Source of the DNA: Candidatus Falkowbacteria bacterium
GTDB lineage: Bacteria > Patescibacteriota > Patescibacteriia > CAIXNZ01
DNA: 33,194 nucleotides
Assembly: GCA_963774955.1 (NCBI GenBank)
Contig: CAVZGV010000004.1
Location: 261,522 to 294,715, forward strand
Direction of reading: 5' to 3'
Shown here one piece after another: positions 3,401-12,162 of this stretch. The stretch's first letter is position 1, and every line of letters begins with the position of its first letter. A model generated the notes under the pieces. It was given only the letters and a program-made list of their open reading frames with translations. It made no database searches and was not told the origin of the DNA. The translations under genes were made by a program, and so were the position numbers.

Positions 3401-6022
3401 TTAGCCATTTTCACTCTTGTCTTTATTAATTTTATTTTTATAAATGAACGTAGTCGTAAGTCCAAGTCCGAGTACAACTGCAGTGGCCAGGAGATAATTA
3501 AGGACAAAAGTGGTTTGCTTTTGTGCTGGTAACAAAGCTGCTTCCTGTTCTTTGGTTGTTAGATTTTTTATTAGATCTTCTGTAAAGCGAGGCATGACTT
3601 GGAAAACATTATTGTACTTGCGCAGGATACCGGTGATTGTTAAGTTGTCGCCTTCGCTAAAATTGCCTTTGCTTATCTTGGTGTTTGTGTTTATATAGAC
3701 TTCAGCTTCGCCGGTTTCATCCTGAAGATAAAATTTGCTGCTATTTTTTTCAATTAAAGTTCCTTGGATTTGAATTAAATAATCGATAATCGCATCATTA
3801 ATTTCGTTAATTTTGATCGCTTGCGGCTCCGGCTCGGGTTCTTTATTTAAGACCACAATATTTTGGGCCGAGCTTAACTTTAATCTTTTATTCCCCTGGA
3901 TTTCACCGACAGTCCCATTAACTTCTACCAGATCTCCTATTTCCAGATCAGGCCAGTCGGCTTTGGACATATATAGTTGCGTGCCTGACCCGGCCAGATA
4001 CATTATAGTTTTTCCGAAAATATTAGGTAGGGCTGAAACCACTCCTTGCGTAATGACCGTGGTGCCAATATTTAAATTTTTTATTTCCTTTAAGTCTACT
4101 TTAGTTACAGACTCTTCAGATAGGGGTTTTTTATCGGCGGCTGTTTGCTCAATCGTCTCTGCTTTTGTTGTGGCCGCAGCTTTTGCCTTGGTCACGGTTG
4201 TTGTTTTGACTGCAGGAATAGCCGCTTCTTTATTCTCTGTAATTTTAATTTTTATTGTTTGTTGTGCGGACAGATATTTATCGCTGACAGTTAGGTTAAT
4301 GGTAAATGTCCCGGTTTGGTTAAATTGCAATTGGATAATGGGATTGGTAAAAATAGTATCATTGGCTTCCCAGGTAAACTGGAGTTTGTCGTTTTCCGGG
4401 TCATAACTGTCCGAAGCATCGCAGACAATTAATTCTCCTTTGAGTGCCTGTTTGGGGCAATAAATTGCAATTAATGGCGCATGGTTTAGTTTGTTTATAA
4501 TGTTTTCTTTTCCCGGAGTCGGGGTCGTTGACCAAAACCAGCTATTTTCAGAAGCCAGACTGTAGCTGACATTTTCTGGGATTGACGGGTCTTCACCGAA
4601 TTTTAAAGTCTGAATTGTTTTGTTAGTATTACTAATCAGCTTAACCGTGTCTTTTATATTATTTAAAGCAATGCCGCTCTGTTGCCGTCTGATCAGTAAA
4701 TATTCCCCGGGTTTAATTATTGTTGTCCCTAAACTTTCTTTGGAAATTTTATAGGTTATTTTACTAGTGGAACTAAGTTGCCAGCCTGCCAGATCAAATG
4801 GCATTGCACCGGTATTTTTTAGCTCTATCCATTCACCTTCGGCATCATTGCCGAGAGGGTTGGGCATAATCTCATTAAAGATAATTTGTTTTGGCTGGGT
4901 TTCCGGAATCTGGTATTGATTTAAGTTGTCATCTGACGAGGAGATTGGTGTGGCTGGAGAAGGCAGGGGGGTGTAGATGTTTTGTGCGCCTTTAGTTGGG
5001 GTTTGAGTGACGACAAAGTTTGTATCGCCGTCTATTTGTCTGGCAGTAGAATTTGGATCACTTGCCAATGGCGCTTTTACGGTTCCGGTCGGCGCTGTCC
5101 AGTTACCGTAATAAACAGTAGCAAAAACTTCTTCATTGTCATTTTGGAGAATAATGACGTCGCCGCTATTGTTTAAGGCTCCTTTGGGTTTTTCTATAAC
5201 ATAGTAGGGATTTATACTATTGGCTTCGATCTCTCCTTCCAAGGTTGTCGCCGTGTTTGAGCCATCTATGATTTTCCAGCCGGTTAAATCTAACCTAAAA
5301 TCATTTTGATTATATAGCTCAATCCATTCCACCTCGCCATCGCTTGGATCGCTGACAAATTCATTGATAACAATGGTGCCGGGACTTGGCTGAGAAGGAA
5401 TATCCGGTTCAGTATCTCCAGTCGGTGTATCAGGGTCATCGGGCTCATCTGCTGGCGGATCTTCACCCTGATTATCAGGATTCTGGCTGGCTATTTCATT
5501 GGCTCGGCCGGCGCTGTTGGCAGTCGCATGAACCAGCCAATTTGTTTCACTGTAATCGTTTACGGTCAGGTCTATTCTTTGCAGAGAAGAATTGGGGCAG
5601 GGCAGATATGTAAAGCTTTCAATAATTTCCAAATTTTTATTTTTTAAAGCAATTTCTTCGCCGTCTTCATTTAGTGTTGTCCAGGAGCTATCTAAAATGG
5701 TGCCAGTAAAGTCAGGGTAATCAGTTTTGAAGTTGGCAGCCACATCAGCGATTATGGCAAATTCACCCGGATCAATTATAAAGTCATTCTGAAAAGCTGT
5801 TAAACCATGATTGGTTGAGTCTTCAGTAAATTTCCAGCCGCTTAAATCTACAGGGTCGCTGCCTGTATTATAAATTTCCAGCCATTCGTGGTCGCCGGGC
5901 TCATAAGCGCCGATTTCAGAAATGACAATGTCGATATCAGCCGCGGAAACTTTAAGTGGAGAAATAAAAAATCCCAACGCAATTAATGTCAGGATTGTCA
6001 GGATTTGTTTTATTTTTTTCAT
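3401..6022 (-). CDS. surface protein: signal peptide, 3 lamin-tail domains, PKD domain, 2 OB-fold-like domains, C-terminal TM anchor
   Basis: Three ISE/INE/FNE...EW(L/I)E(I/L)(Y/K)N...DL(S/T/A)GW repeats; PKD motif DASDSYDPENDKLQFTW...GTFTINLTVSD; OB-like GDLVEVNG and FYLQDETG...GDNLTITG; C-terminal hydrophobic helix. Confidence 0.88.
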   Translation of the reverse strand: MKKIKQILTILTLIALGFFISPLKVSAADIDIVISEIGAYEPGDHEWLEIYNTGSDPVDLSGWKFTEDSTNHGLTAFQNDFIIDPGEFAIIADVAANFKTDYPDFTGTILDSSWTTLNEDGEEIALKNKNLEIIESFTYLPCPNSSLQRIDLTVNDYSETNWLVHATANSAGRANEIASQNPDNQGEDPPADEPDDPDTPTGDTEPDIPSQPSPGTIVINEFVSDPSDGEVEWIELYNQNDFRLDLTGWKIIDGSNTATTLEGEIEANSINPYYVIEKPKGALNNSGDVIILQNDNEEVFATVYYGNWTAPTGTVKAPLASDPNSTARQIDGDTNFVVTQTPTKGAQNIYTPLPSPATPISSSDDNLNQYQIPETQPKQIIFNEIMPNPLGNDAEGEWIELKNTGAMPFDLAGWQLSSTSKITYKISKESLGTTIIKPGEYLLIRRQQSGIALNNIKDTVKLISNTNKTIQTLKFGEDPSIPENVSYSLASENSWFWSTTPTPGKENIINKLNHAPLIAIYCPKQALKGELIVCDASDSYDPENDKLQFTWEANDTIFTNPIIQLQFNQTGTFTINLTVSDKYLSAQQTIKIKITENKEAAIPAVKTTTVTKAKAAATTKAETIEQTAADKKPLSEESVTKVDLKEIKNLNIGTTVITQGVVSALPNIFGKTIMYLAGSGTQLYMSKADWPDLEIGDLVEVNGTVGEIQGNKRLKLSSAQNIVVLNKEPEPEPQAIKINEINDAIIDYLIQIQGTLIEKNSSKFYLQDETGEAEVYINTNTKISKGNFSEGDNLTITGILRKYNNVFQVMPRFTEDLIKNLTTKEQEAALLPAQKQTTFVLNYLLATAVVLGLGLTTTFIYKNKINKDKSENG

Positions 6023-6062
6023 ATTTTTTGTTTTTATTTTTTAGTTCTTTTGGGCACGGCGT

Positions 6063-6115
6063 GCTCTCTTGTCACCCTGAGTATAGTCGAAGGGCTCACC
6101 ATGACATAAGAGAGC
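6063..6115. repeat. REP-like nested hairpin containing CCCTGAG...GTCGAAGGG
   Basis: GCTCTCTTGTCA-CCCTGAGTATAGTCGAAGGG-...TGACATAAGAGAGC; the core recurs at 7762-7791. Confidence 0.6.
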
Positions 6116-6327
6116 AGGCTGCGCCTTATTTGTTTCTTATAATTTTATCTTAGCAACTGCAATTATTAAGGCAATCAAATCAAGCGAAAAAATATGTTAG
6201 ATAAATTTATCATTTTTATAAATTGATAAACAATAAAACACCGATTTAATTTAATTTTTGGCAGATTAAAAAATGTTAAAATTTTTTAACAAAGTATCAA
6301 TTGAATTTGTGGATAAGTATTTAACAC

Positions 6328-6359
6328 TTGCATTTTTAAAATATTTTTTATACTATAAT
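6328..6359 (+). promoter_or_regulatory. sigma70-type promoter for 6391..6963
   Basis: TTGCAT (6328-6333), 17 bp, TACTAT, with an overlapping TATAAT at 6354-6359. Confidence 0.6.
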
Positions 6360-6390
6360 TAAATCAGTAAAAAGTTAAATGGAGGGTGGC

Positions 6391-6963
6391 ATGAAAATTG
6401 AAATCAGGGGTTTTCGGGAATTCATGCAGGCTGAGCTTTTTGAAATCGTGGAAAAAAGGCGAGGCCAATTACGTCCGGTGGAAGACATTGGCCAGGAGGA
6501 GCTGGCCTATCTGGTCGGTATGCTGGCACGATTCATTGATACTGCTCATTTTTTACAGCACTACACCAATAGCCCCATCTATGATTTGACTTTGTGTCAA
6601 AACAAGGGCGCTTCCAAAACAGCGCTGACCGGCCTGGGTGATTTCTGTCTGTTTCGCACCGGCTTTTTCCCCCTGGGGTTTAAGTCAAAGCGTACCCCGC
6701 CCAGGAAAAACTTTATTCTGGCGGGGCAGAAAGCCTATTGGCTGGTAGCAGAAAGTCACAATCAGACCCTGGAAATGTTTCGGTCTCTGGCTCTGAATTT
6801 CCTGATTTTTTCCAACTTGCTGAGTGAAATCAGACTGCGCTATTTGTCTGATCAGGAACTGATGGAGCTGTATGATTTATGGCTGGAGACCGGTAGTGAG
6901 TTTGCTGAGGAAGCGATCAGGAAACAAGGAGTGACTCCGCTGCGGGTGGATCACTTAAGTTAA
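6391..6963 (+). CDS. conserved hypothetical alpha-helical protein directly upstream of the TIGR-like array
   Basis: ATG 6391 follows GGAGG. Motifs YLVGMLARF, LGDFCLFRTGFFP, GQKAY and LYDLWLETGS resemble an uncharacterised proteobacterial family (recalled, not searched). No Nop, RuvC or HNH motif is visible. Confidence 0.8.
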   Translation: MKIEIRGFREFMQAELFEIVEKRRGQLRPVEDIGQEELAYLVGMLARFIDTAHFLQHYTNSPIYDLTLCQNKGASKTALTGLGDFCLFRTGFFPLGFKSKRTPPRKNFILAGQKAYWLVAESHNQTLEMFRSLALNFLIFSNLLSEIRLRYLSDQELMELYDLWLETGSEFAEEAIRKQGVTPLRVDHLS

Positions 6964-7015
6964 GGCAGACGTAACATGCAGTGTTTCTTTGAAACTAACC
7001 GTTGATTGTCTGCCG

Positions 7016-7043
7016 AAGCCCCCCCGCTTCGCGGGGGGGCTTT
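7016..7043 (+). terminator. strong GC hairpin after array unit 1
   Basis: AAGCCCCCCCGC-ttc-GCGGGGGGGCTTT. Confidence 0.7.
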
Positions 7044-7267
7044 AAAAAATTCAGTCTAAAGCGGACGATTTACCGATTGTTCCCCTGGGAACGACTGATC
7101 TGATGTCCGCTGATTTTGGCAAGACGATTGTCGAGGTGTTTTTTTAAAAACAAGTCCATCCATGTCTTGCCTTAGTTTAGCCAGGCGAAACCACCAATGT
7201 TTCTGGAAAACGTAGGTTGCATTGCCTGGCCAAACACCAAAGAGCCCCCCTCGGCTTTTTTCTTGGC

Positions 7268-7296
7268 TTGACATTAGGAAGTTGGTTTGTTACTAT
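7268..7296 (+). promoter_or_regulatory. sigma70-type promoter for array units 5-7
   Basis: TTGACA (7268-7273), 17 bp, TACTAT (7291-7296); no credible ORF before the terminator at 7526. Confidence 0.75.
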
Positions 7297-7525
7297 AGGC
7301 AGATATCTTAAAAAATAATAAAATGTTTAATATTTTATAGATGTTAACTGTAATAAGCGGACGAATAAGCATCTGTTGATTCATAACGAATACGCAGGTG
7401 TCCGCTGATTTTGGCAAGACGAACAGATCGGTGTTAAAAACGAACACGATTTTGTCTTGCCAGCAGATTTAGTCAGGCGATCCCGGCTCTGTTTTGAAAA
7501 CAATATCCTCGGTGCCTGGCTAACC

Positions 7526-7553
7526 AAAAAGAGTCCCAATCGGGGCTCTTTTT
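7526..7553 (+). terminator. intrinsic terminator closing the array
   Basis: AAAAAGAGTCCC-aatc-GGGGCTCTTTTT; a weaker homolog at 7239-7262 closes units 2-4. Confidence 0.75.
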
Positions 7554-7724
7554 ATTATGTGAAAAACCGCCCGCGTGAGCGGGCGTGTGCGTTTGGAGCG
7601 AAGCTTTTGGGACAGCATAATACGTTAAATATAATAAAAGGTTTAAGATAGAAAATAACTTTTAAACCAAAATTCAATAAATTCCGCCTTCGGCGACTTA
7701 CTTTTTTATAACTGAAAAAGTAAG

Positions 7725-7753
7725 CCCGCCTTCGCATAAGCTACGGCGGGTAA
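7725..7753. repeat. 29-bp palindromic repeat, intergenic copy of the element found inside rpsA
   Basis: CCCGCCTTCGCATAAGCTACGGCGGGTAA; 26/29 identical to the reverse complement of 12926-12954. Confidence 0.8.
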
Positions 7754-7761
7754 ACGAGCCT

Positions 7762-7791
7762 GCCCTGAGCGAGCGTAGCGAGTCGAAGGGC
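7762..7791. repeat. REP-like element CCCTGAG...GTCGAAGGG
   Basis: GCCCTGAGCGAGCGTAGCGAGTCGAAGGGC; same ends as 6075-6094. Confidence 0.6.
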
Positions 7792-8002
7792 TTATTCGGC
7801 CCCCCAAACCCCCTGGGAGGGGTGAAAATCGGTAAGTGCGATAATATTAATCAAAACGTTTAGCTTCGAGATGCGGGGGCTAGATAAATACCACCGGCTA
7901 TTTTACCGGCGGTAGCTTATTTTCCTTGACTAGTTGCATTTTGTCCTGCTAAGATAGCCACACATGCAATTTTAGCCACATAGAACCAAACAAGGAGGAA
8001 AG

Positions 8003-8299
8003 ATGACAAAATTGCAGAGAACATTTAAGTTTCTGGTGCTGTTTGAAAAACACAGCGATTTCAGCAAATGGCCACGGGCTATTTTGCTGAGGATGGTTTT
8101 TCTTAATCGCGCCTATATCCGCGAATTCTGCTGCTATTGCGACAAGACTTTAAGATTCAAAAAATCTGAAGCAGTCGTCGGCGATAGCGGTGAAATTTGT
8201 CCGACCTGCCTGCGTCAGGAATGCCGCGAGCTTTATGAGCAAATGAAAGCAGAGGGCAAATTTACTGAGCTGCAGATTTGTGAAGCGGAAAAAAATTAG
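8003..8299 (+). CDS. hypothetical protein with a putative Zn finger
   Basis: CCYC...CPTC; SD AAGGAGG; promoter TTGACT (7926)-TAAGAT (7950); terminator at about 8297-8330. Confidence 0.7.
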   Translation: MTKLQRTFKFLVLFEKHSDFSKWPRAILLRMVFLNRAYIREFCCYCDKTLRFKKSEAVVGDSGEICPTCLRQECRELYEQMKAEGKFTELQICEAEKN

Positions 8300-8347
8300 C
8301 CCCGAGTGCTATCTAGCAACCGGGGCTTTTATTATTGTAAAATAAAG

Positions 8348-8376
8348 TGGACAAAAATGGACAGGCGTTGTATAAT
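8348..8376 (+). promoter_or_regulatory. promoter with a tandem TGGACA direct repeat (10-bp period)
   Basis: TGGACA (8348-8353), 17 bp, TATAAT (8371-8376); second TGGACA at 8358-8363. Confidence 0.65.
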
Positions 8377-8403
8377 AGAAATATAATTAATTAACTAAAA
8401 AAT

Positions 8404-8583
8404 ATGTATTTATCCTGGGCATTAATAATTATAGGTGGTTTGGTTATTTATTTTATTGGCAAAGGGGCGGGGGCGAGAAGATCCGAAGGAAGAATTCAAG
8501 AGTTGGAAGATAAGCTGGAAGAAATTAAAGAAGAACTGGAAGCAAATGATATAGATATTGATACAGATGTTGAAGATTATTAA
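8404..8583 (+). CDS. 59-aa single-TM plus acidic coiled-coil protein (not in the ORF track)
   Basis: Translated by hand: MYLSWALIIIGGLVIYFIGKGAGARRSEGRIQELEDKLEEIKEELEANDIDIDTDVEDY*. Confidence 0.75.
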   Translation: MYLSWALIIIGGLVIYFIGKGAGARRSEGRIQELEDKLEEIKEELEANDIDIDTDVEDY

Positions 8584-8597
8584 TTTTTTAAATAAGT

Positions 8598-8750
8598 ATG
8601 AAAAAACTATATACCCCCAAAGAAGTCGCTGATATGCTAAGAGTGTCAAAGAAAACAATTTACAGGCATATTAAAAGTGGTAAAATTAAAGCCACTAAAA
8701 TTGGTCAATGGAGAATAAAACAAGAGGATTTAAATAAATTAATTAAATAA
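8598..8750 (+). CDS. excisionase-like HTH_17 DNA-binding protein, 50 aa (not in the ORF track)
   Basis: Translated by hand: MKKLYTPKEVADMLRVSKKTIYRHIKSGKIKATKIGQWRIKQEDLNKLIK*. Confidence 0.9.
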   Translation: MKKLYTPKEVADMLRVSKKTIYRHIKSGKIKATKIGQWRIKQEDLNKLIK

Positions 8751-8773
8751 TATTAAAATTAATATTTAAATTT

Positions 8774-9616
8774 ATGAAAAAAACAAGGCTTATAATTATT
8801 AGTATCATCTCAACATTATTTGTTGTCCTGATAATAATATTTGGTTTATGGCAATTCGGGTTAATAGGATTAAACAATGTCCAAACAGAGCAAAATGGGG
8901 AAAATGGAAATGACAATAAAAAGAATGTTGCTTCTGAATACTCTGAATTAGCCAATAACTTAGAATTGTTAGAACCGGATGTAGATTTTTATAAAAATAT
9001 TTATAATTATGTAAACTTGCTTGATGAAGAAGAATATAAAAAATTTAAAACCAGTGCAGGCAAACTTGATAGCGAAGAAAACAATGAAGATTTGGCGGGG
9101 CTAATTACTTTAATTTATGTTAATGAACTAAACAAAAATAATGAAGTCAAAGCAATAATAGAAGATTTAAAAAGCCAAGTGTATGAAAATACCAAAAAGG
9201 AATTAAGCAAAGACGAAGAAAACGAGCTGTTTGAGAAAAATAATACTTGTGCTCAGCTAATAACGGGAATTACCGAACAGTTAAAAAATAAGTATGAAAA
9301 CGAATTATCTACCACCGAAAACGAAGAATTAAAATTTATAACATATAGTCCAACTCTAAAAAAGTGTGTTTATGTTACTGATTACTCCTACAGATACACG
9401 AACATAAGTGATTACACTGAAAGTTATAATTATTCTTCTTATATTATTTATAACGCAACAACCAACACAAAAATAAATGATTACACATACTACTATTATA
9501 ATTACCCATACCTTAGTGACGAAGATGAAGATGTTAAGTCGGAAAATAATAAAAAAGCATATGCAAAATATATATTAGAAAATACAAACTACAATGTAGA
9601 CCTGCTAAAGGATTAA
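8774..9616 (+). CDS. membrane-anchored hypothetical protein, N/E/K/Y-rich, very low GC
   Basis: 280-aa ORF with an N-terminal TM helix. Confidence 0.8.
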   Translation: MKKTRLIIISIISTLFVVLIIIFGLWQFGLIGLNNVQTEQNGENGNDNKKNVASEYSELANNLELLEPDVDFYKNIYNYVNLLDEEEYKKFKTSAGKLDSEENNEDLAGLITLIYVNELNKNNEVKAIIEDLKSQVYENTKKELSKDEENELFEKNNTCAQLITGITEQLKNKYENELSTTENEELKFITYSPTLKKCVYVTDYSYRYTNISDYTESYNYSSYIIYNATTNTKINDYTYYYYNYPYLSDEDEDVKSENNKKAYAKYILENTNYNVDLLKD

Positions 9617-9775
9617 ATATTAAAGCGGTAATTAAAACTATTTACGGGCATATTAAAAGTAGTCATTTATTTAACAGTTTCAACTGAAGGAATATAAATT
9701 AAAATTATTATCAGAATTACACAACTAAAAAGAGTGCAACCTTACGGCGGCACTCTTTTTAAATATGAGAATTTC

Positions 9776-10669: not shown

Positions 10670-12031
10670 TTACAATTCAACTTCCTGTTCATAGGCGGGA
10701 ACTTCGGCTGAAAATCCCAGTTTTATATTAACCAGATTTTTCAAGGCGTCAGCTGCGGCGCGTTCACCCTGAACAATAAAAATATTTTTAGGCGCTTTTT
10801 TGAGATTGCCGATAAATTTTATCAGTTGTCTTTGATCAGCATGTGCAGAGTAAGCGCCAATGGCTTTAATTTCAGCCTTGTTTTTTATAGGCTGTCCTAG
10901 AATTTCTACCACAGGAGTGCCGTCTAAAATTTTTCTACCTAAAGTACCTTCCACCTGAAAACCGATCACCAGAAAACAATTATTGGGATTGTCCAGATAA
11001 TTTTTTTCATGATATAAAATACGTCCGCCCGTGGACATGCCAGACCCGGCAATAATTATTTTAGGGGCAGGGACTTTATCAATACCTTTTGATTCATCAC
11101 GGTTCATAGTGAATTTTAAACCTGGGAAGCTGAAAATATCATCTCCGCTGGCGATAAGATGACGAGTTTTTTCATTAAAATAATTCTGATGTTTTTTGTA
11201 AACCGCGGTTATTTTTATGGCCAAGGGGCTGTCAATAAAAATTGAAACCGGAGGTATTAACTTGTTTTCTACAAAATCATTAAGCTCATAAAGGAGTTCC
11301 TGGGTGCGTTCAATGGCAAATGAGGGCATTAATAAAACCCCTTTACGGTTGATTACCTTAAGAATAGCCTGTCTTAATAACTCTTTTCTTTGTTTTTTTG
11401 GCTCATGGTTGCGGTCGCCGTAAGCAGACTCGATAATTAAATAATCGGCGGTTGTAATGATTGCCGGAGGTTTTAAAAGCGGAGTCGGCGGATTGCCCAG
11501 ATCACCGGTAAACACCAGCTTGCGTTTATTGCTATTCTCCGTAAGCCAAATTTCATAAATTGTTGAACCAAGAATATGCCCGGCTTCATTTAGCCGAATC
11601 GTAATATTATCATTTAATTTAATCTCCTGGCCATAAGTATAGGTTTTAATCAATTTTAGCATTTGCTGTAAATCAGCTTCGTCATACATAGGCGCCAGGC
11701 CTTTTTCCCTGGCTTCTTCCTGCATCAGATGAACAGCATCTTCCAGCGCTACAGCCATAAGGTCACGGGTGGGAAGCGTACAAATGATTTGGCCACGAAA
11801 GCCATCTTTGACGAGCTTGGCCAATCGGCCGCAGTGATCCAAATGAGAATGAGTAATTAAAACAAAATTAATTTCTGCAGGATTATAAGGGAACGACTGG
11901 TAATTTAATTCCTGAAGTTCAGGCGCACCCTGAAACAGGCCGCAATCAACCATAAGTTTTGTTTGGCCGACATCTATAATATAATTAGAGCCGGTGACGA
12001 CTTTGGCGCCGCCGAAAAAATGTAGTTTCAT
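10670..12031 (-). CDS. MBL-fold beta-CASP ribonuclease (YSH1/CPSF73-like)
   Basis: Start MKLHFFGGAKVVTGS; motifs THSHLDHCG, AGHILGS, FTGDLG, ESAYGDR and YSAHAD. Confidence 0.93.
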   Translation of the reverse strand: MKLHFFGGAKVVTGSNYIIDVGQTKLMVDCGLFQGAPELQELNYQSFPYNPAEINFVLITHSHLDHCGRLAKLVKDGFRGQIICTLPTRDLMAVALEDAVHLMQEEAREKGLAPMYDEADLQQMLKLIKTYTYGQEIKLNDNITIRLNEAGHILGSTIYEIWLTENSNKRKLVFTGDLGNPPTPLLKPPAIITTADYLIIESAYGDRNHEPKKQRKELLRQAILKVINRKGVLLMPSFAIERTQELLYELNDFVENKLIPPVSIFIDSPLAIKITAVYKKHQNYFNEKTRHLIASGDDIFSFPGLKFTMNRDESKGIDKVPAPKIIIAGSGMSTGGRILYHEKNYLDNPNNCFLVIGFQVEGTLGRKILDGTPVVEILGQPIKNKAEIKAIGAYSAHADQRQLIKFIGNLKKAPKNIFIVQGERAAADALKNLVNIKLGFSAEVPAYEQEVEL

Positions 12032-12162
12032 ATTGATAAGGGGTAAGAAGGGATTGTAAGAGTTAAGAGGGGGTAATAAGGGAAGTCCCTTCTTACATCT
12101 TTTACCCACCTTCCTCTTCTTTAACTTATTTAAATTATATCACGTTACTCACATTATAAATA

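Follow-up and report, generated by a model that had tools for sequence, protein, structure and literature searches.

Stem-loop TIGR units, as described in section 9 of PMC12045711, carry two spacers in a hairpin that has box C and box D positions. A small loop hairpin between the spacers is assigned to the CPR TasR clade in section 4 of bioRxiv 10.64898/2026.09.09.750476, where reporter assays are also described in which guides given apart from tas still worked. The same preprint gives 9MTY as the structure of TaTasR, and for CsTasR it reports R8 at the position of the first RuvC aspartate and an inactive domain.

In this study, an array of stem-loop units was analysed in a 33,194-nucleotide stretch of Candidatus Falkowbacteria bacterium DNA (assembly GCA_963774955.1, contig CAVZGV010000004.1, positions 261,522 to 294,715), the whole of which is referred to here as the window. 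The source genome comprises 1.50 Mb in 7 contigs and is 95% complete. The array resembles the CPR TasR-clade stem-loop TIGR arrays presented in the main texts of PMC12045711 (Faure et al. 2025) and bioRxiv 10.64898/2026.09.09.750476 (Xu et al. 2026), including that of CsTasR, in its palindromic stems and tandem units, in its two 9-nt spacers, fixed short motifs and loop hairpin, and in its Patescibacteria-type host with a large TasR having Arg for the first RuvC Asp. It differs from them in lying 231 kb from tas, whereas the catalogues given in these texts were collected around tas loci; in being placed within the 3' UTR of a conserved but unrelated gene; and in having three-unit cassettes with terminator hairpins, the second cassette with a promoter-like site as well. 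At the box C position the units have CGA, compared with CUU or CCA in the solved examples of these sources, the box names in the window units having been assigned by position after section 9 of PMC12045711. The main texts of both papers make no mention of remote or orphan TIGR arrays in another gene's 3' UTR; their supplements may list them. The array belongs to the known stem-loop TIGR class, and adjacency to tas, a feature of the published sets, is absent here.

Box C/D sRNAs (Nop5-family) and IS110 bridge RNAs are alike in having two guides, a structured RNA and Nop-fold binding (PMC12045711), but the window has no methyltransferase or recombinase context and the units are not located at mobile element ends. 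A further likeness to IS110 is the weak match of the Tas profile to the IS621 and ISCro4 transposases. Orphan CRISPR arrays, which a cas locus at another site can serve in trans, are alike in having no adjacent effector and a cognate effector elsewhere in the genome; they differ in RNA architecture and protein family, and TIGR has no known adaptation machinery.

Seven units were found, all on the plus strand, consisting of unit 1, directly behind the gene of a 190-aa protein, and two cassettes of 3 units each (Table 1). The first-pass annotation had placed the start of unit 1 on the base following the stop codon of this gene, and this proved correct, as the stem GGCAGAC starts at 6964 and adjoins the TAA at 6961-6963. 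The units follow the grammar stem-CGA-N9-TG-loop-C(G/A)A-N9-TG-stem, in which the loop is able to form a small hairpin. Palindromic stems of 7-10 bp were present in 7/7 units, unit folds had z values of -3.6 to -7.1, and the spacers were all distinct from one another (14/14). Cassettes 1 and 2 represent one scaffold copied, approximately 295 nt apart, with variable parts that are unlike. The boxes of unit 1 are degenerate, with GT and TA instead of GA; a hairpin scan demanding GA boxes missed units 1 and 4, and relaxed boxes recovered both. Rfam gave no match in the whole window at gathering thresholds, and a single chance-level match (E 0.74) was obtained for 5900-8100.

Table 1. Features of the array region, with positions counted from the first base of the window
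Feature	Position	Strand	Remarks
Likely promoter of 190-aa gene	6328-6356	+	TTGCAT-17 nt-TACTAT, read from sequence; would also drive unit 1
190-aa protein ORF	6391-6963	+	All-helical; widespread uncharacterised family; neighbour unrelated to Tas
Unit 1	6964-7014	+	Stem GGCAGAC; stem-loop guide unit; 190-aa gene 3' UTR; model R1 E 1.3e-5
GC hairpin, 13 bp, then UUU	7015-7043	+	Terminator-like, probably leaky; from fold
Unit 2, cassette 1 first unit	7060-7111	+	Stem AGCGGAC; R1 E 1.5e-4
Unit 3, cassette 1 second unit	7118-7171	+	Stem GGCAAGAC; second box AA; R1 E 2.5e-7
Unit 4, cassette 1 third unit	7180-7230	+	Stem GCCAGGC; second box GT; R1 E 1.6e-3
Cassette 1 terminal hairpin and U-run	7237-7266	+	Fold of 7172-7268
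Cassette 2 promoter-like site	7268-7296	+	TTGACA-17 nt-TACTAT, 10/12, TG before second hexamer; consensus match only
Unit 5, cassette 2 first unit	7356-7406	+	Stem AGCGGAC; R1 E 3.8e-8
Unit 6, cassette 2 second unit	7411-7463	+	Stem TTGGCAAGAC; R1 E 8.9e-7
Unit 7, cassette 2 third unit	7469-7523	+	Stem TTAGTCAGGC; second box AA; R1 E 2e-3
Cassette 2 terminal hairpin and U-run	7527-7552	+	Fold of 7465-7552

Folding of 6964-7050 gave the unit 1 hairpin followed by the 13-bp GC hairpin (z -7.05; 0/200 shuffles equal). The first-pass annotation had unit 1 lying before the terminator hairpin of the 190-aa gene. This holds for the position, but the hairpin is a weak terminator by form, since it is trailed by just three U. 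It is also missing from the terminator scan, as are the other two plus-strand hairpins ending transcription units; all 3 are based on folds.

The relation of the window units to the units flanking tasR was assessed with a covariance model, R1, made from 29 distinct tasR-flanking units and zero window units. With filters off, R1 matched 7/7 units on the plus strand of the window (E 3.8e-8 to 2e-3), with the next best match at E 0.31. Genome-wide, 43 matches were obtained at E <= 0.01: the tasR locus accounted for 32, the site at C4:22.5-23.1 kb for 6, the window for 4 and contig C3 for 1; at genome scale 3 of the 7 window units were above E 0.01. One grammar is common to the window units and about 36 units at the three other genome sites. 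By their sequence, the window units can be assigned to the stem-loop TIGR class, like the tasR-flanking units. Two of the other genome sites, the array at C4:22541-23128 and the single unit at C3:456310-456359, each carry a promoter-like site together with a terminator-like hairpin. The C4 array is preceded by a terminator and another small ORF. A 185-aa ORF lying upstream of this array was considered as a paralog of the 190-aa protein and rejected (BLASTP E 1.6).

Searches for Tas agreed with the first-pass annotation, which had recognised neither a Tas nor an IS110 ORF within the 33 kb. The Tas profile, PF02371, PF01548, and PF01798, searched against the genome, had no match in the window; tblastn with 6 Tas homologs against the window gave a best E of 0.32, and a six-frame HMM search of the window for Tas gave a best E of 0.78. 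Pfam Nop (PF01798) had no match over the whole genome. The sole place in the genome matched by the Tas profile, PF02371 or PF01548 was the locus of a 516-aa ORF, tasR (C4:35961-37511), situated on the same contig as the window array and 231 kb off. The PF01548 match to tasR was below the cut-off (E 0.041, 13.6 bits), and a precomputed PF01548 match is present in some relatives. In PDB, the single sequence matched only 9MTY_A (E 0.031), while the TasR family profile (35 members) matched 9MTY_A at E 6.2e-24, IS621 at 3e-4, and ISCro4 at 1.2e-3. TasR relatives numbered 617 at E <= 0.001, many of them with PF02371, and those named were Parcubacteria, Falkowbacteria, Buchananbacteria, Uhrbacteria, and Nealsonbacteria records. 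These profile matches identify the 516-aa ORF as a predicted Tas, namely a large TasR, and as the single Tas-like gene of the genome. The family consensus starts with IGIRH, having Arg at the Asp position of RuvC enzymes, and would fit placement in the CPR TasR clade with inactive RuvC as described for CsTasR in bioRxiv 10.64898/2026.09.09.750476, the placement being drawn from the family consensus. Arrays on the same strand flank tasR at C4:33130-35862 and C4:37610-38707, all on the minus strand.

We therefore consider it likely that 6964-7552 is a satellite stem-loop TIGR array, using host-gene transcription and served in trans by the remote TasR. As the likely partner is a TasR 231 kb off on the same contig, the array would be an outlying part of a system already known, with no new effector involved. 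One of the readings offered in the first-pass annotation, an orphan array acting in trans with a Tas encoded elsewhere, thus gains support from the sole Tas-like gene and from its flanking units of the same grammar. In this explanation, seven guide units, whose hairpin scaffolds hold two 9-nt spacers apiece, lie between the 190-aa gene and an HU gene, and their RNAs would be processed and bound in trans by the single TasR (C4:35961-37511). The activity expected of this TasR is RNA-guided DNA binding and repression, rather than cutting, because RuvC is inactive in the CPR TasR clade. Since free-standing units exist elsewhere in the genome and guides were supplied separately in the assays mentioned above, action of the window guides in trans is plausible.

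Transcription of the array would involve two promoters. The 190-aa ORF is preceded by GGAGG at 6381-6385, 5 bases upstream of an ATG whose Met is also used by the homologs. The likely promoter of this gene was unlisted in a consensus promoter scan, and the same layout was observed upstream of the homologs in loci L004 and L006. Unit 1 would be transcribed from this promoter as 3' UTR, and its co-transcription with the 190-aa gene is a reasonable expectation from the arrangement. No promoter was seen in the sequence upstream of cassette 1; with unit 1 and the GC hairpin between the gene and this cassette, read-through from the 190-aa gene promoter would be needed for its transcription. Cassette 2 would be transcribed from its own promoter-like site, ending at its own terminator.

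Own-genome targets were searched with 43 units in both spacer arrangements, the correct one being derived here from what PMC12045711 says of the 3' overhang. No site with 0-1 mismatch was present. Twenty sites had 2 mismatches in this search, which was run without shuffle control, and matches with 3-4 mismatches were noise. By our estimate, a viral collection is large enough for an exact 18-mer to turn up by chance.

Several observations count against the explanation by a remote TasR: the disruptions in tasR, the degenerate boxes of unit 1, the three window units above E 0.01 at genome scale, the hairpin at 7015-7043 standing before cassette 1, for which no promoter was seen, and the lack of own-genome sites with 0-1 mismatch.

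Compared with the intact P0161, tasR has four frame disruptions, with approximately 99% protein identity outside the affected stretches. At codon 10 one base is missing, so that reading from the native start meets a stop after ten codons; one base gained and one lost (+1/-1) leave the roughly 44 codons between them out of frame, covering a conserved helix-hairpin-helix-like motif; and the fourth disruption is a shift near the C-terminus. If real, these would leave the array without a working partner in this strain. The system may then be a relic in which tasR is a pseudogene and the arrays are intact but functionless leftovers. Four indels within 1.5 kb of otherwise well-matching sequence speak for it, and so do the long genes of the window, which are intact with full-length domain matches (the ORFs of 873, 479, and 454 aa and two radical-SAM genes) and thereby indicate that frameshifts are not common throughout the assembly. 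However, units, terminators and the promoter-like site of the cassette are all well preserved, the tasR frame stays open for 516 codons despite the shifts, the related genome G002, of the same genus, has an open tasR of 500 aa, and the disruptions may stem from a local assembly error. Overall, a relic appears unlikely.

The 190-aa protein itself was another candidate partner. The first-pass annotation had seen no Nop, RuvC or HNH motif in it, and the searches upheld this. Pfam had no real match (best E 0.22), NCBIfam had 0 matches, and PDB had 0 matches by sequence and a best E of 0.21 by family profile. The family has 582 cluster representatives (E <= 0.001), nearly all of the 150 listed being 177-218 aa in length; Pfam across 142 members showed no family in more than 2, and ESM Atlas returned solely clusters named hypothetical protein. 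An AlphaFold model from 142 sequences (pLDDT 92.9, pTM 0.89) predicted ten helices with confidence and was used in place of an earlier 9-sequence fold (pLDDT 58). A Foldseek comparison had been named as the way to reveal a likeness to Nop, Tas or IS110, and it revealed none: against PDB nothing was found at E <= 0.001, the best being a 14-3-3 protein (E 0.4, TM 0.25), and against BFVD nothing was found at E <= 0.001 (best 0.67). In hhalign, the 190-aa family and the Tas family were matched with a probability of 0.5%.

Co-occurrence was determined in 61 genomes, namely the source genome (G000) and 60 relatives; these are kin, so the counts are descriptive, and absence refers to the genomes searched. 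The 190-aa gene was present in 6/61 (G000, G002, G004, G005, G009, and G011) and Tas in 9/61 (G000, G002, G003, G007, G013, G016, G045, G059, and a weak partial one in G056), with both together only in G000 and G002. Of the genomes with Tas, six or seven have no 190-aa gene. Matches to a strict unit pattern numbered 19 in G000, 27 in G002, 7 in G016, and 5 in G013, all of which are Tas-positive, and G007 and G059 had 2 each, all beside tas. The remaining genomes had 0-3 scattered matches each, the reversed-pattern control giving 0-1 per genome, and 0 matches were found in G004, G005, G009, and G011, which have the 190-aa gene without Tas. Units were located at four sites in G000 and on seven contigs in G002. 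Among these 61 related genomes, the arrays track Tas and not the 190-aa gene.

The first-pass annotation had proposed a system with a new effector or accessory partner. In the form of a neighbouring protein that binds tigRNAs and is linked to the array through co-transcription, this proposal is already largely refuted by these counts. In its favour are a family of no known function and the gene abutting unit 1 in the window and a three-unit cassette in G002, but 4 of the 6 genomes with the gene have neither Tas nor pattern matches, and neither fold nor profile indicates likeness to Nop, Tas or IS110. A check for N9-TG arrays behind homologs of the gene in other genomes had been suggested. One such case was found, in a same-genus relative (L004) whose 190-aa gene is 82% identical to that of the window, but R1 on 11 homolog loci (56,126 bases), some of which are duplicates of one place, detected units in L004 only (n = 3). 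The short spacing from the gene to HU in most relatives, given below, also argues against a coupled partner. A role of the 190-aa protein as partner is thus highly improbable; it is a bystander without Nop or IS110 likeness, and only its transcription is lent to the array.

The surroundings of the 190-aa gene are conserved in relatives, in the order LTD-domain gene (minus strand), 190-aa gene (plus), HU (minus), and KH-domain gene (plus). HU follows the 190-aa gene in 7/7 loci that reach far enough (L004, L005, L010, L011, L027, L028, and L029), which may include one organism from different assemblies. Two further loci are little informative, as L030 ends inside the gene and L006/L009 ends 212 nt past it. 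The gap between the 190-aa gene and HU was 62-79 nt and empty in five loci, 236 nt with three units in L004, 507 nt with a small zinc-ribbon ORF and no unit in L027, and 2813 nt with the array and further ORFs in the window. In G002 a three-unit cassette occupies the same slot, beginning at the stop codon of the 190-aa gene and having a terminator after it; its stems are homologous to those of the window and its spacers are different. The intergenic slot separating HU from the 190-aa gene is variable, and here it holds the array.

Another reading in the first-pass annotation was that the tas gene of this locus had been replaced, to which loss can be added. Past insertions are hinted at by the 2.2 kb of additional DNA that separates the array from HU (window ~7560-9700) and contains an HTH_17 gene and ORFs without a Pfam family. 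However, the tblastn and HMM searches described above found no remnant of tas in the window, none of the 7 related loci reaching HU has tas in the slot, and the G002 cassette is located directly between the gene and HU without extra DNA, so that a former tas at this place is very doubtful.

It is equally hard to regard the hairpins as REP-like or terminator-type palindromes instead of guides, for although other palindromic elements are present in the region and Rfam has no match, each hairpin contains two variable segments of a fixed 9-nt length between fixed dinucleotides, a grammar given for stem-loop TIGR units in section 9 of PMC12045711, and the units match the tasR-flanking units under R1, share conserved stems but not spacers with G002, and occur many-fold in Tas-positive genomes only.

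A satellite array served by the remote TasR implies no new effector: the gene in front of it is a bystander, and its partner would be a TasR of a known kind. It is possible, and is put forward tentatively, that in this CPR genus the scattered tigRNA genes form a trans guide set, a native programmable repressor network of one nuclease-dead TasR in place of a compact locus. Its members would be independent transcription units of three kinds: single-unit genes, cassettes of three units that each carry a promoter and a terminator, and cassettes lodged in a conserved gene's 3' UTR. With tasR apparently broken and the arrays apparently intact, the strain would, if the disruptions are real, represent effector loss with guides retained. 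TIGR guides can sit hundreds of kilobases from tas, in self-contained cassettes or in another gene's 3' UTR. Surveys limited to the surroundings of tas would therefore undercount guides, and candidate targets would be missed.

The source genome (G000) carried a single tasR gene, and comparison with P0161, an intact protein nearly identical to its product, revealed four frame disruptions in this assembly, in which the region of the conserved motif is coded in a different frame. The tasR of G000 is either a pseudogene or misassembled. In the main array by tasR, several units contained a spacer pair that was present twice, as in units C4:34991-35044 and C4:33639-33692; these repeated pairs suggest a segmental duplication within the array.

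Guide units were also observed at other sites of the genome (see table). The additional array on contig C4 was preceded by a 64-aa CxxC ORF and had a promoter-like site and a terminator-like hairpin of its own. The single unit on contig C3 was flanked by a promoter-like site upstream (TTGACA, 17 nt, TAATTT) and a terminator hairpin downstream, and therefore looks like a solo tigRNA gene.

Guide-associated and neighbouring features in the window and in the source genome (L001, stretch of C4 with the tasR locus)
Feature	Location	Strand	Remark
98-aa zinc-ribbon-like ORF	window 8003-8299		homolog in same slot in L027, a locus of a 190-aa gene homolog
HTH_17 gene	window 8598-8750		within extra DNA 7560-9700
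Beta-CASP/metallo-beta-lactamase ribonuclease-type gene	window 10670-12109	-	3 kb from array
Additional array, ~7 units	L001:2541-3128 = C4:22541-23128	+	10 kb from tasR locus
Main-array stretch with spacer pairs present twice	L001:13416-15285	-	by tasR
tasR	L001:15961-17511 = C4:35961-37511	-	sole tasR
Solo guide unit	C3:456310-456359	-	contig other than C4

In the window, the array was separated from the downstream HU gene by additional DNA (7560-9700) that was absent in G002, a tas-positive relative of the same genus, and contained, besides the ORFs listed, an AT-rich 280-aa ORF matching no Pfam family. The slot between the 190-aa gene and HU is variable. GC-rich palindromic elements lay at 6050-6130 and 7700-7920, sharing a 12-nt word (6085-6096 and 7781-7792), and a 25-nt inverted repeat was located at 7736-7760/7896-7920; no Rfam match was obtained for the palindromic elements.

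Directly upstream of the likely promoter of the 190-aa gene, TGTGGATAA was found at 6308-6316, and the same word, the complement of the DnaA-box consensus, was present upstream of the homologs in loci L004 (same genus) and L006. The enzyme processing stem-loop tigRNAs is described as unknown in the preprint (bioRxiv 10.64898/2026.09.09.750476); the nearness of the beta-CASP gene to the array may be meaningless.

Pattern-matching units in G002 were distributed over seven contigs (C11, C23, C46, C51, C67, C113, and C117), just one of which carried tas, although contig breaks may split some of these arrays. Scattered arrays therefore seem usual in the genus of G000 and G002.
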